Virus record (IMG/VR): IMGVR_UViG_2703718808_000018
Coordinates: 1 to 12,452 of that record
Length of the DNA: 12,452 nt
Reading direction: 5' to 3' (one strand)
DNA from: a virus
Taxonomy: Duplodnaviria > Heunggongvirae > Uroviricota > Caudoviricetes
A program made the translations under genes and the position numbers. The notes below the pieces were generated by a model, which saw only the letters and a list, made by a program, of their open reading frames with translations, had not been told where the DNA came from and did not search any database. Below, piece after piece: positions 7,668 to 11,673 of this stretch; the stretch's first letter is position 1; each line of letters begins with the position of its first letter.

Positions 7668-7735
7668 CCAACAATATTTATACCGGATTTCTTCCGGAAG
7701 TTCGTGGGTAAAGTTCGGTATCAGAAGAGGTGAGT

Positions 7736-8767
7736 ATGGCTAATGCCTGGCTCAGATTGTGGCATGACATGCCAAATGACCCCAAGTGGCGAACGATTGC
7801 CAGGGTATCAGGACAGCCAATCGCAACAGTGATGGCAGTGTATATCCACCTTCTGGTGAGCGCGTCACGAAATGTCACGACATGTCACGGCGTGTCACTA
7901 CGTGGTCACATTGATGTCACGACGGAAGATTTAGCAAGTGCGCTTGATGTGACGGAAGACGTAATTGATTCAATTTTGCATGCAATGCAGGGGCGGGTTC
8001 TGGATGGTGACCTTATTTCCGGATGGGAAAAACGTCAGGTGCTGAAAGAGGACAATGGTAACGTTTCGCAAACGGCAAAATCCCCGGCAGAGCGTAAGAG
8101 AGCGCAGCGGGAGCGGGAAAAGCTGCGGAAACATAATGCTGATTGTCACGATGAGTCACGACGTGTCACGCATCTGTCACGACAAGTCACGACAGATAAA
8201 GATACAGATACAGAATTAAACCCCACACATAACGCGCGCGAGAGTATTCCGACCAGTGAGTCGAATGGTGCGCCGTTGCAGACAGCCGAACCTGAATACC
8301 TGGACGGCCTGAGCGAACCGATCGGGAAATTTTCGATGACTACTGTCTGGCAGCCGTCGCCGGATTTTCGACAACGGGCAGCAGTGTGGGGTATGGCTCT
8401 GCCTGAGCCGGAGTTTACACCTGCTGAGCTTGCCGCATTCCGGGATTACTGGATGGCGGAGGGGAAGGTTTTCACGCAGGTTCAGTGGGAGCAGAAATTT
8501 GCCCGTCACGTGCAGCACGTCAGGGCACAGGTAAAACCAGTCAGCAAGGGGGTAAGCCATGCAGCATCAGGTGGCACGGCATCACGGGCAGTTCAGGAAA
8601 TCCGGGCAGCACGCGAACAGTGGGAACGTGACAACGGATTTATCAGCAACGGAAACGGCCTGGAAGCTGTGGGAGCTTATGGGGGAGGTGTATTCGAACC
8701 GCTGGACTCAGAAGAACGGGGCCGCACCTTCGAAGCTCTGGATTGCCCAGATTGGTGCGATGACTGA
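7736..8767 (+). CDS. Replication initiation protein (lambda O-like role; YdaU/DUF1376-type N-terminus, DnaT-like C-terminal region)
   Basis: ATG at 7736 with AAGAGG upstream (the ORF track starts at GTG 7730). The N-terminus AWLRLWHDMPNDPKWRTIARVSG is typical of DUF1376 prophage replication proteins. The gene contains two clusters of phased direct repeats (candidate iterons) and is followed by a P-like gene. Confidence 0.8.
   Translation: MANAWLRLWHDMPNDPKWRTIARVSGQPIATVMAVYIHLLVSASRNVTTCHGVSLRGHIDVTTEDLASALDVTEDVIDSILHAMQGRVLDGDLISGWEKRQVLKEDNGNVSQTAKSPAERKRAQREREKLRKHNADCHDESRRVTHLSRQVTTDKDTDTELNPTHNARESIPTSESNGAPLQTAEPEYLDGLSEPIGKFSMTTVWQPSPDFRQRAAVWGMALPEPEFTPAELAAFRDYWMAEGKVFTQVQWEQKFARHVQHVRAQVKPVSKGVSHAASGGTASRAVQEIRAAREQWERDNGFISNGNGLEAVGAYGGGVFEPLDSEERGRTFEALDCPDWCDD
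7863..7921 (+). repeat. Iteron-like cluster 1: six direct copies of GTCAC(G) at 10-11 bp phasing
   Basis: GTCAC starts at 7864, 7874, 7884, 7894, 7905 and 7916, all in the same orientation and inside the initiator ORF. Confidence 0.6.
8144..8191 (+). repeat. Iteron-like cluster 2: five direct copies of GTCACG at 10-11 bp phasing, followed by an A+T-richer stretch
   Basis: GTCAC starts at 8145, 8155, 8165, 8176 and 8186, followed by GATAAAGATACAGATACAGAATTAAA. This is about 280 bp downstream of cluster 1 within the same ORF. Confidence 0.6.
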
Positions 8768-9221
8768 ACAGCAAATCCGTCTGGTCTGCCGTCAGTGCAT
8801 GGACCGCTGCCGGGCGGGTGAAACGTGGCCCCCGGACCTGGCTGAGTTTGTTGCGCTGATTTCGGAGAGTGGGGCAAATCCATTTGGTCTTACGGTGGAT
8901 GCAGTGATGGAAGAGTACCGGCGCTGGCGCAATGAATCCTGGCGATACGACGGGAGTGATAAATACCCGTGGCCACAGCCTGTGCTGTACCACATCTGCC
9001 TCGAAATGCGTACCAGAGGGATTGAGCGCCAGATGACGCAGGGTGAGTTAAAACGACTTGCGGAACGGCAACTGACGAAATGGGCAAAGCATGTTGGTAA
9101 CGGGATGAGTGTTCCGCCAGTGCGACGACAACTGGAAGGGGCGAAACACCCGCAAGGGCCAACGCCAATTGAACGGCTGAAACAGGAATACGAACGCCGG
9201 AAGGCAGCTGGTTTTATTTGA
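8760..9221 (+). CDS. Replication protein P-like (DnaB helicase loader)
   Basis: The C-terminal two thirds align with lambda P as I recall it (PPDLAEFVAL / YPWPQPVLYHI / ELKRLAERQL versus lambda PSPGQFVAWC / YPWKSNAHYWL / ELRRKAADEL). Stop at 9221 is firm; start is uncertain. ATG 8760 overlaps the initiator stop (ATGACTGA); the same frame is open back to ATG 8679 and ATG 8559, which would give a lambda P-like length but a ~200-bp overlap. Confidence 0.7.
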   Translation: MTEQQIRLVCRQCMDRCRAGETWPPDLAEFVALISESGANPFGLTVDAVMEEYRRWRNESWRYDGSDKYPWPQPVLYHICLEMRTRGIERQMTQGELKRLAERQLTKWAKHVGNGMSVPPVRRQLEGAKHPQGPTPIERLKQEYERRKAAGFI

Positions 9222-9254
9222 ATCTGAGAAACGATTTTGTCGGAGGAAATTTTA

Positions 9255-9971
9255 ATGGAAACTGTATTTGACGCACTGAAAGCACTGAAAAGAGCCTCTT
9301 CACAGGTAGTGGCGGCCCGCCTTGGAATCAGCCGTGAAGATGCGGTCAACGAACTGTGGAAACTGAAGCGCCGCGGTGAAGCGGATAACAAGGGTTCGAT
9401 GTGGTGGCTGATTCAGGCTGGTGAAAGTGAACCGGTGTCACCGGTACCGAAAGTGACAGCGCAAATGCTGATTAAGGCGATTGAACAACATGGCCCACAA
9501 ACGGCAGATGAGCTGGCACTGATGTTCGGGATTACCTCCCGCCGGGCGAATTCATCGCTGGCCATGGCAATCAGCAAAGGGCGTCTGATTCGCGTGAATC
9601 AGGGCGGTAAATTTCGTTACTGCATACCGGGCGCTGATTTACCGGCAGAGCCGGAAGCTGCATCCGTAGCGGAAACAGATGGTAAAGCCTTTCCTCAGCC
9701 AGCAGGTGTTGCGTTACCAGTCCGGGAAACGACGACACAGGAAGAAATGAAAACAGAAATCGTGGAAGACATTGTGAAGTTACAGCCATCGGTCACCGAA
9801 ACGAAAGCAGATGACCTGATTCTACCATCGCTGCATGTGGCTAACCGCGAGCTGCGCCGGGCAAAAGGTCAGGTTCAGAAGTGGGAGCGTGTCTGCGCCG
9901 CGCTGCGGGAACTGAACAAACACAGGGATATTCTCCGGGATATTACCGCCACCAGAGAGCTGCTGCGGTGA
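9255..9971 (+). CDS. Winged-helix DNA-binding protein with two tandem wHTH-like modules and a C-terminal coiled coil (hypothetical)
   Basis: ATG at 9255 with GGAGG 8 nt upstream (the ORF track starts at TTG 9237). Residues ~1-55 and ~75-135 look like two repeats of a helix-turn-helix plus wing, and the C-terminus ([33 protein letters not shown]) is predicted helical. Confidence 0.75.
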
Positions 9972-10285
9972 GTGGCTGGAAGAAGTGGCGCTGGGCGGAA
10001 ATTATGATACTCCGGCAGTGTGCGGGAACGATGACAGTCGAAAGCATCGGCAGTCTGATTGGCCGTAGTGGGGCTGCCGTCAGGACGAAAGCGCGGGAAC
10101 TGGGTATCTGCATGATGTTACGGGGTGATTATCACCAGTCAGCCAAATGTTCACAGCGTGATATTGAGCTGGCGCGGCAACTGCATCAGCGTGGCGTACC
10201 CCGACGGGAAATTGCCGAAAAGTTTGGGATGAAGTTGGGCGCAGTGAATAACTACGTTTATTTCGACAGGAGGGTTCAGGCGTGA
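9968..10285 (+). CDS. Small putative DNA-binding protein (HTH-like segments), hypothetical
   Basis: Proposed GTG start at 9968 overlaps the preceding stop (GTGA); alternative ATG at 10004. The ORF track's start at 9881 lies inside the previous gene. C-terminal [19 protein letters not shown] is HTH-like. Stop at 10285 is firm. Confidence 0.55.
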
Positions 10286-10587
10286 GGGTGAGAATTTATA
10301 TCGCCGGTCCGATGACGGGATATGAAAATTTCAACCGTGAGGCGTTTCACAAGGCGGAAGAAGCACTGAAACAGGAAGGGCATACCGTATTAAATCCCGC
10401 AGTACTTCCGGACGGGCTGACTCAGCCACATTACATGGATATTTGCATGGCAATGATTCGTTGTGTGGATGCGGTTTATATGCTGAAAGGCTGGCAGCGG
10501 TCGGCAGGCGCTAAGGCAGAGCTGGCACTGGCGGAGAAACTGGGGCATGCAGTTATTTTCCAGGAGGCAACCAGTGAGCGAAATTAA
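10282..10587 (+). CDS. DUF4406-like (nucleoside 2-deoxyribosyltransferase-like fold) protein
   Basis: GTG start overlapping the preceding stop (GTGA), with AGGAGGG 7 nt upstream. The N-terminal IYIAGPMTG motif and overall size fit the DUF4406 small Rossmann-like proteins common in prophage nin regions. Confidence 0.75.
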   Translation: MRVRIYIAGPMTGYENFNREAFHKAEEALKQEGHTVLNPAVLPDGLTQPHYMDICMAMIRCVDAVYMLKGWQRSAGAKAELALAEKLGHAVIFQEATSERN

Positions 10588-10734
10588 TTACCAGGAACTA
10601 CGGCAGGTGAAAGAGAAAGCATAATCCAGAACTGAATAATTAAAATCAGCACTGTAAATAAAATTTAATCCTTAACCGGAGGGATTCCTGCACCCTCAGA
10701 ACATCAGGAGACCGCCCGGCAGGGCGGTAGTGAA

Positions 10735-11086: not shown

Positions 11087-11517
11087 GCGAGATTAATTAT
11101 CAGGAAGGGCATGAAACGGCTGGTCAGCCAACTGAAAAAAGCGAAGCCGGACTGCAAATTACCGGATAAGGCGATGGACTACCTGAAGCGAAACGGACTG
11201 ATAAACGAGGAGAATATTTTACGATGACCTGGCCTGAAGCGTTCATAACGGTAGGAATTGCAATGGCGGTGGCGCTGGTGGTGTATTCGATTTGCCGCTG
11301 GGGATAAAAACGGTTTGCGGGGAAAGAAGAGTTAAGTAGAATTGCTGCGGGTGCTTGAGGCTGTCTGCCTCGGGCATGCCGACGTAAGGCAGACAGAGAA
11401 AAGCCCCAGTTAACATTATGCGTCTTGCAGGACGCTTAACATTAATCTGAGGCCATATCTATGACTTGCACACTTAGATTAGCCTCTTATGCGCCGAAAG
11501 GCAAGGAGCAGCAGGCT

Positions 11518-11673
11518 ATGAAGCAGCAAAAGGCGATGCTAATCGCCCTGATCGTCATCTGTATTACCGTCGTTGTAACGGTAGTGGTAACGAGGAAAGA
11601 CCTCTGCGAGGTACGAATCCGAACCGGCCAGACGGAGGTCGCTGTCTTCACAGCTTACGAATCTGAGAAGTAA
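11518..11673 (+). CDS. hokD: Hok/Gef-family type I membrane toxin (HokD/RelF-like)
   Basis: 51-aa product MKQQKAMLIALIVICITVVVTVVVTRKDLCEVRIRTGQTEVAVFTAYESEK has the Hok/Gef signature: one transmembrane helix, then ...TRK.LCE.R.R.G..EVA.F.AYES.K. ATG at 11518 has AAGGAG upstream; the ORF track's longer form from 11461 is an in-frame upstream extension. Confidence 0.85.
   Translation: MKQQKAMLIALIVICITVVVTVVVTRKDLCEVRIRTGQTEVAVFTAYESEK

Follow-up and report, generated by a model that had tools for sequence, protein, structure and literature searches.

The window analysed here is the whole 12,452-nucleotide (nt) stretch of the IMG/VR virus record IMGVR_UViG_2703718808_000018 (Caudoviricetes), and our subject is a run of three consecutive plus-strand genes within it that encode, in order, a DUF1627/YdaW-family protein, a small protein with two predicted helix-turn-helix (HTH) motifs and a DUF4406 protein with a minimal nucleoside deoxyribosyltransferase (NDT)-superfamily fold. 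Earlier inspection of the letters alone, hereafter the sequence-only reading, had described three genes of these kinds joined by two GTGA overlaps, and the sequence, the list of open reading frames (ORFs) and the family matches all agree with that description (Table 1). We interpret the trio, with a probability of about 0.7 for this reading as a whole, as three separate, independently shuffled accessory genes of a lambdoid Shiga toxin 2c (Stx2c) prophage, the last of which encodes a probable 2'-deoxynucleoside 5'-monophosphate (dNMP) N-glycosidase.

Table 1. Genes, junctions and signals of the three-gene locus and its immediate flanks (positions in the window; aa, amino acids).
Feature	Position	Strand	Remarks
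DUF1627/YdaW-family gene, 238 aa	9255..9971	+	ATG start; PF07789 5.3e-83; phrog_630 2.8e-116; RefSeq WP_047082289.1
Small two-HTH DNA-binding protein gene, 105 aa (predicted)	9968..10285	+	GTG start; phrog_323 1.6e-27; weak Pfam HTH matches
DUF4406 gene, 101 aa	10282..10587	+	GTG start; stop 10585-10587; minimal NDT-superfamily fold
Junction 1, GTGA	9968..9971	+	DUF1627 stop TGA 9969-9971 overlapped by GTG 9968-9970
Junction 2, GTGA	10282..10285	+	HTH-gene stop TGA 10283-10285 overlapped by GTG 10282-10284
Shine-Dalgarno GGAGGA	9242..9247	+	7 nt upstream of the DUF1627 ATG; read from the sequence
Shine-Dalgarno AGGAGGG	10268..10274	+	Within the end of the HTH gene, 7 nt upstream of the DUF4406 GTG
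Lambda-P-like helicase loader gene	8760..9221	+	Pfam Phage_lambda_P 1.3e-15; RefSeq 'replication protein P'; 33-nt gap to the trio
Remnant 5' end of an ead/Ea22-like gene	10574..10624	+	GTG start; 16 codons, MSEINYQELRQVKEKA followed by a stop; overlaps the final 14 nt of DUF4406

The first overlap depends on where the middle gene starts. In RefSeq (WP_072094476.1, called by PGAP) the start is ATG 10004, 32 nt from DUF1627, which would abolish the overlap and make it an illusion of annotation. ATG is generally favoured over GTG, and 93-aa forms of the protein exist in databases; however, the residues that this start would discard belong to the conserved part of the protein. An alignment of the 105-aa form with 20 homologues of 61% identity or more, drawn from Salmonella, Citrobacter, Pantoea and Enterobacter among others, showed W7 and E11 to be conserved in at least 90% of sequences; the segment AEI(M/L)I(I/L)RQCAG, which contains the first helix AEIMILRQ, likewise begins upstream of the RefSeq methionine (Met13), and most homologues began two codons ahead of the conserved Trp. 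The PHROG 323 alignment covers residues 5-104. Moreover, of 30 distinct junction variants in related prophages, 26 have GTG as the codon for residue 1; 19 of these overlap as GTGA and seven do not, the DUF1627 stop lying 2 to 242 nt away. Because the residues upstream of the methionine are conserved among homologues and GTG is kept even in variants that lack the overlap, the true start is probably GTG 9968, the RefSeq start is probably 12 codons too short, and the first overlap can therefore be taken as genuine; a start at ATG 10004 is improbable. The ORF itself is open from 9881 to 10285, and GTG 9881, the sole alternative in-frame start codon, was considered and rejected: it adds 29 residues that occur in no homologue, and in homologues from other genera the conserved Trp is only two codons from the start.

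The GTGA junction is conserved in relatives, with 19 distinct variants before the HTH gene and 36 before DUF4406, of which 13 follow the HTH gene and 23 follow a DUF977 gene. The same kind of junction is common elsewhere. In phage lambda, four-base stop/start overlaps occur at 7 of the 11 junctions from O to Q (O/P, P/ren, ninB/C, ninC/D, ninE/F, ninG/H and ninI/Q), and in a Salmonella prophage they join five successive unrelated genes. A closely related prophage (L151, 5315-5548) carries an unrelated 77-aa ORF in place of DUF4406 that still starts with a GTGA overlap and still ends in SERN before the stop; because this replacement keeps both ends, the joints of cassette exchange lie at the very ends of the gene. 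Because the same overlap joins unrelated genes in lambda, in the Salmonella prophage and in this relative, it is uninformative on shared function: the four-base overlap is a generic junction style of lambdoid early operons and a frequent recombination joint, and it provides no evidence that the joined genes act together. The sequence-only reading had taken the two overlaps as the sign of an obligately co-translated three-protein module, an argument that loses its force here, although the GTGA junctions may well permit termination-reinitiation coupling.

Co-occurrence bears on the same question directly. For each gene, as many as 80 IMG/VR loci were retrieved and classified with tblastn; these samples are the 80 closest matches per query and not random, and they are biased towards co-occurrence. 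The order DUF1627 - HTH - DUF4406 was the commonest among these close relatives (61 of 118 distinct architectures), followed by DUF977 - DUF4406 without DUF1627 behind a different replication module (22/118), DUF1627 - HTH without DUF4406 (15/118), DUF1627 - DUF977 - DUF4406 as in Rac-SA53, where DUF977 is called 'LygF' (11/118), and, in a few architectures, DUF1627 - DUF977 only. A megablast search of 5,426 complete E. coli genomes gave 3,266 locations for DUF1627 (1,804 genomes), 1,436 for DUF4406 (1,192 genomes) and 1,153 for the HTH gene (770 genomes); at least 80% of the whole stretch was present in just 454 genomes.

Outside this lineage the association dissolves. A scan with a DUF4406 alignment, taking one genome per species, yielded 80 loci, of which 79 belong to species outside the query lineage. 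Among these 79 loci none had DUF1627 next to DUF4406, the HTH gene was a neighbour in one, where it lay downstream, and a DUF977-like gene was a neighbour in two or three. A Pfam scan of 77 upstream and 77 downstream neighbours of DUF4406 outside Escherichia gave a heterogeneous phage mix that included C5 and Dam methylases, DnaB, AAA_25, RusA, lambda P, MarR-type proteins, integrases, lysozymes, exonucleases, DUF968 and phosphatases. The HTH gene is similarly independent: its Salmonella copy comes after the genes for a DnaC-like loader and a 259-aa protein, with DUF4406 absent, and in Pantoea stewartii and Citrobacter braakii it sits in the exo/int arm, amid unrelated small genes and without either partner.

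The proposal that the three proteins constitute one co-translated module, in which two DNA binders would guide or control a DUF4406 enzyme that modifies or senses nucleotides, draws on real features: both GTGA overlaps are real and conserved, the trio is the commonest architecture sampled and 454 of the complete E. coli genomes carry it, and DUF4406 retains the nucleophile Glu and the Tyr of its superfamily. Each gene is nevertheless found without the others, in related phages as well as across species, and the proposal is largely refuted thereby, as the sequence-only reading had itself named independent occurrence in related phages as an observation that would count against it. Components of a functional module at the level of an operon co-occur and stay adjacent in divergent genomes, which these three genes do not. 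Four-base overlaps join unrelated genes throughout lambdoid operons, and neither PADLOC nor any other system-level search returned a match for the trio (PADLOC gave no match for the second and third proteins and one marginal match for the first, with an E-value of 0.005 and 13.5 bits and no link to a defence system). We therefore consider an obligate three-protein module very unlikely. What stands of the nucleotide-modifying or nucleotide-sensing idea is its last component, as the DUF4406 protein has an enzyme-like active site in a nucleotide-type fold.

The DUF4406 protein is a clear member of its family (PF14359, 127.2 bits where 22 is the cut-off, with residues 4-93 aligned to positions 2-91 of the 91-position profile). 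The family is large, with 18,118 representatives of 50%-identity clusters at E ≤ 1e-3, and consists mostly of stand-alone proteins of 95-130 aa; none of 10 longer representatives contained a second Pfam domain. The structural model (predicted local distance difference test, pLDDT, 90) shows a minimal NDT fold, b1-a1-b2-a2-b3-a3-b4, that corresponds to the flavodoxin-like NDT core, and profile alignments agree with this, so that the fold named in the sequence-only reading is upheld. Because the protein falls short of the Pfam NDT threshold (PF05014), we file it as a relative of the NDTs at clan level and not as an NDT.

The alignments with characterised enzymes required a diverse family set. 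With close homologues (alignment A2), hhalign against single human DNPH1 or L. leichmannii NDT (LlNDT) sequences, both verified against the PDB, gave spurious short alignments only, a local hmmsearch gave the same outcome, and a PDB sequence search with A2 or the single DUF4406 protein produced no significant match. A profile of a diverse set (A5; 42-58% identity), obtained from the search of representatives, aligned over nearly the full length with the NDTs of T. brucei (TbNDT; E = 4.6e-5) and Leishmania (LmNDT; 0.005) and more weakly with BlsM, BcmB and MilB; these alignments and one made by hhalign with DNPH1 concur on the residues described below. Invariant positions in A5 are G9, F22, P39, P43, Y51, S74, G76 and E80, and the residues of the putative site are Tyr6, Cys55 and Ser74-x-Gly76-x-x-x-Glu80, the last of which conforms to the superfamily motif (D/S)-x-G-x-x-x-E.

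In the superfamily this motif places the nucleophile Glu where the helix after strand 3 begins. E80 aligns with the nucleophile Glu of TbNDT, LmNDT, BlsM, BcmB and DNPH1 (E104) and is invariant (40/40 and 48/48 DUF4406 sequences). Y6 aligns with the strand-1 Tyr of TbNDT, LmNDT, BpNDT and DNPH1, a position occupied by Phe in the ribo-specific cytidine monophosphate (CMP) glycosidases BlsM and BcmB, and is Tyr in 40/40 and 44/48 sequences. S74 (48/48), six residues before E80, aligns with the Ser of BlsM, BcmB and DNPH1, which are all NMP or dNMP glycosidases, but with the Asp of TbNDT and LmNDT. Loss of catalytic residues had been named in advance as an outcome that would speak against the sequence-only reading; for these key positions (Glu 48/48, Tyr 44/48, Ser 48/48) the residues are retained.

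In the NDT superfamily, the strand-1 Tyr orients the Glu and excludes the 2'-OH of ribose, and in Rcl/DNPH1 the Ser contacts the 5'-phosphate. The phage NDT-like protein DmtZ is a dAMP N-glycosidase/transferase that needs Tyr6 and Glu103 (PMC12884076). Because the Tyr and Ser of DUF4406 can be read by this knowledge of the superfamily and by the DmtZ precedent, sequence comparison makes it most likely that the protein is an enzyme of the dNMP N-glycosidase kind whose active site is atypical and minimal. DUF4406 might instead be a nucleotide binder of the NDT/TIR/SLOG fold class that is non-catalytic or differently catalytic, for example a binder or degrader of an immune signal, and the slot that it occupies an anti-defence islet. 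The invariant S-x-G-A-x-x-E together with the Tyr is exactly the catalytic signature of NDT/DNPH1, however, the profile matches are to NDTs and nucleoside monophosphate (NMP) glycosidases and not to TIR or SLOG proteins, and there is neither a PADLOC match nor direct evidence of an anti-defence effect, all of which makes this explanation highly improbable.

Several observations weigh against our reading of the locus as a set of independent genes, one of which encodes a probable dNMP N-glycosidase. The IMG/VR counts come from nearest matches and not from a random sample. On the enzymatic side, DUF4406 reaches 17.2 bits against PF05014, below the cut-off of 28.8. At the third position of the NDT triad it has Cys55 in place of the expected Asp or Asn (D80 in DNPH1; the Asn of 'QKNIQM' in TbNDT), according to two independent alignments; in the superfamily this residue sits on the helix ahead of strand 3, and 48 DUF4406 family members have there Cys (30), Asp (8) or something else (10). 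D53, two residues before, is invariant among close relatives only and not family-wide, and a register shift in the helix around Cys55 is possible, as the alignments have low confidence there. The model also ends after strand 4 (E90-93), about 20 residues follow Glu80 in the protein, and a C-terminal segment is lacking; the family median is 20.5-27.5 residues after the Glu, and the alignment targets are 130-160 aa long. Finally, a literature search on DUF4406, PF14359, DUF1627 and DUF977 found no functional studies.

A further point of this kind is that, in the sampled E. coli prophages, DUF4406 always lies directly after the HTH gene or DUF977, with a GTGA junction. This constancy could reflect a partnership of two genes in lambdoid prophages of E. 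coli, in which the HTH protein or DUF977/LygF works with DUF4406, for example by tethering or controlling it, and DUF1627 is unrelated. One or the other gene is directly upstream in every sampled E. coli DUF4406 architecture (36 GTGA variants), and both the HTH protein and DUF977 are predicted DNA binders. Outside Escherichia, by contrast, approximately 7 of the 77 upstream neighbours have an HTH-type Pfam match, the rest being methylases, DnaB, RusA, P, integrases and others, and the HTH gene and DUF977 each also occur without DUF4406. Recombination at fixed junctions in one phage lineage would explain the pattern equally well, and we regard such a partnership as unlikely, if somewhat less so than the other alternatives considered here.

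The DUF1627 protein belongs to its Pfam family with ample margin (PF07789, 276.9 bits where 28.1 is the cut-off, with residues 76-230 aligned to the full profile, 1-155 of 155). Its AlphaFold2 model, built from a shallow alignment, is of low overall quality (pLDDT 60.9) and uneven along the chain: residues 69-123 form a confident canonical winged helix (pLDDT 83-88), residues 1-55 a three-helix HTH module in which no wing is modelled (pLDDT 59-70), residues 129-186 a disordered acidic and Pro-rich linker, and residues 182-237 a long C-terminal helix. Foldseek matches were to ScpB, which has tandem winged helix-turn-helix (wHTH) domains (E = 4e-4; template modelling (TM) score 0.22), to DIP2311, and to MarR/ArsR-type and plasmid centromere-binding wHTH proteins, and weak Pfam and PHROG HTH matches fall in both halves. 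Of the tandem winged helix that had been proposed for this protein, the second module is thus supported and the first only moderately so. The N-terminal module is mosaic among prophages, as many BLAST matches begin only at query base 279 or 357.

DUF1627 almost always lies directly after a helicase-loader gene. Among 76 distinct upstream contexts, the loader was lambda-P-like in 30, with a gap of 32-34 nt, and most of the others had a DnaC/IstB-like ATPase loader. A protein that follows the loader of whatever type is a candidate replication-associated or early host-takeover factor. The 259-aa protein that precedes the HTH gene in a Salmonella enterica prophage (L303, 3225-4004), with a four-base overlap between the two and a DnaC-like loader ahead of them, is a full-length DUF1627 homologue with 25% identity (E = 4e-17); because it has no Pfam match on record, the DUF1627 family reaches beyond Pfam detection. 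DUF1627 and the HTH gene therefore form the more durable pair, and DUF4406 is an add-on. We also considered DUF1627 as a homologue of lambda Ren and rejected this, as BLASTP against lambda Ren gave an E-value of 1.8 and the two share genomic position alone. PHROG 142, 'Ren-like exclusion protein', matched the whole DUF1627 protein with E = 4.7e-5 (at the second winged helix), and no single stretch passed.

The sole functional hint that we found for this family is that ydaW of E. coli K-12, a truncated DUF1627 gene, was among the prophage genes that blocked the toxin RcaT of retron-Sen2 in an overexpression screen; elsewhere the gene appears in a listing of uncharacterised transcription factors. 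Combining this hint with the properties of DUF4406, one may speculate that DUF4406 proteins are widespread minimal NDT-fold enzymes (approximately 96 aa, with a Tyr/Cys/Glu site and no C-terminal lid) that destroy a non-canonical dNMP or an immune signal early in temperate-phage infection and that, together with retron-toxin blocking by YdaW, the slot behind the loader is an anti-defence or pool-sanitising islet. We attach little credence to this idea.

The middle protein had sub-threshold Pfam HTH matches only (Sigma70_r4_2, HTH_7 and HTH_23) and matched PHROG 323, 'transcriptional regulator', at 1.6e-27. DNA binding is accordingly predicted, from family and fold resemblance, for both this protein and the DUF1627 protein. 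An NCBIfam scan of the three proteins added nothing.

The genomic setting is that of a known prophage type. The 1,451 bases around the trio are 100% identical to the chromosome of E. coli O178:H19 strain 2012C-4431, whose annotated record shows a lambdoid Stx2c-converting prophage integrated beside potC. The order in that record is int, xis, a RecE-like exonuclease, dicB, relBE, a cI-like repressor, a cro-like gene, YdaT, a DnaT-domain O and replication protein P, followed by DUF1627, 'DNA-binding protein', DUF4406, small genes, hok/sok, DUF968, RusA, a methyltransferase, tRNAs and stx2. The trio thus occupies the early-right (pR) operon immediately 3' of the helicase-loader gene, where lambda has ren and the nin genes. 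Rfam assigned no RNA family within the trio, its only hit being sok downstream, and a scan for promoters and terminators found no promoter-like or terminator-like site within the trio, which fits simple polycistronic expression. The composition profile of the region is unremarkable.

Several features of the surrounding sequence were recorded in passing. The P reading frame is open from 8559, which places about 200 nt of it within the O gene (7730-8767, plus strand) in a different frame; the RefSeq start of P at about 8760 gives an 8-nt overlap with O, and PHROG 15931 spans O and P as though they were fused in some phages. A hok/sok-type toxin-antitoxin locus lies at 11349-11673 on the plus strand (Rfam sok at 11349-11523, 113 bits; end of the Hok ORF at 11673). 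On the minus strand, the immunity region contains a RelE/ParE toxin (5970-6257) and a RelB antitoxin (6257-6448) that adjoin the cI-like repressor (6476-6877). Also on the minus strand, an 809-aa 'exonuclease' (1419-3848) combines an exonuclease domain at its C terminus with a central part that is of low complexity and very acidic; downstream of it lie dicB (4129-4317) and a DUF1482 gene, and the arm resembles a Rac-like early-left arm.

The 3' end of the trio carries a trace of exchange. The relative with the 77-aa replacement ORF has a full-length Ea22-like gene (5535-5996) whose start is identical to the remnant at 10574-10624 of the window, and a stretch of about 40 nt (10562-10609) gives short BLAST matches at the starts of ea22 genes in HK106, RCS47, Stx2c phages and P1-like plasmids. 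This stretch looks like a shared, conserved recombination linker.

Taken as a mechanism, our reading would have one polycistronic mRNA carry all three genes, with the GTGA overlaps permitting ordinary termination-reinitiation coupling and the genes being exchanged as cassettes by recombination at their junctions. DUF1627/YdaW would act as a two-winged-helix DNA binder with an oligomerisation-type C-terminal helix that stays with the replication module, the 105-aa protein would be a two-HTH DNA binder that often but not always follows it, and DUF4406 would be an independent 'moron'-type gene. Its product would be a homo-oligomeric minimal N-glycosidase acting on a dNMP, in which Glu80 would attack C1', Tyr6 would position Glu80 and select against ribose, and Ser74 would contact the 5'-phosphate. 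It might clear some dNMP, possibly a non-canonical one, from the nucleotide pool while the phage begins to replicate its DNA; the only pointer to such a role in the nucleotide pool is the replication- and methylase-rich neighbourhoods in which DUF4406 occurs.

All three genes belong to existing uncharacterised families that are present in hundreds to thousands of E. coli genomes, and they are ordinary mosaic content of an early region; the region is already in RefSeq under these family names and carries little weight as a 'system'. Correcting the RefSeq start of the middle gene by what are probably 12 codons is a modest improvement. DUF4406 is of wider interest, as no member of this very large family has been characterised and its conserved residues give a concrete dNMP N-glycosidase hypothesis; if true, this would give the NDT superfamily a minimal catalytic unit and phages a new nucleotide-pool function.

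We compared DUF4406 with superfamily members that included the transferases LlNDT, TbPDT and CtNDT and the (d)NMP N-glycosidases DNPH1/Rcl, MilB, BcmB, BlsM and phage DmtZ. With approximately 96 aa, DUF4406 stops after strand 4, whereas these enzymes have 130-160 aa and, in NDT and DNPH1, a C-terminal segment (strand 5 plus tail) that feeds the active site of the partner subunit and that DUF4406 lacks; the Asp/Asn of the NDT triad is replaced by Cys55. Another comparison was with PDB entry 1t1j (a structural-genomics 'hypothetical protein', APC5043) and with Pfam DUF1937; the identity is 18% only, and this relative is itself uncharacterised and so offers no clue to function. The DUF1627 model has what may be two HTH/wHTH modules in tandem, and ScpB and many MarR/ArsR wHTH proteins are its top Foldseek matches, but the global TM scores are 0.2-0.25, the linker and C-terminal helix have no counterpart there, and DUF1627 is no member of those sequence families. 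As a locus, the trio resembles the lambda ren/nin region in its slot right after the helicase loader and in being a string of small, dispensable, mosaic genes with four-base overlaps, yet the three proteins include no lambda Nin protein, and DUF1627 has no significant pairwise similarity to Ren. A close known arrangement is ydaW-lygF-rac19 of Rac-SA53, which has the same order of P-like/YdaV, YdaW, a middle gene and DUF4406 (rac19, 93% identical to the window protein) and differs in that its middle gene encodes DUF977/LygF and not the two-HTH protein. The ydaW of the K-12 Rac prophage, in turn, is a truncated remnant beside lysis genes, whereas the window protein is a full-length DUF1627 member.

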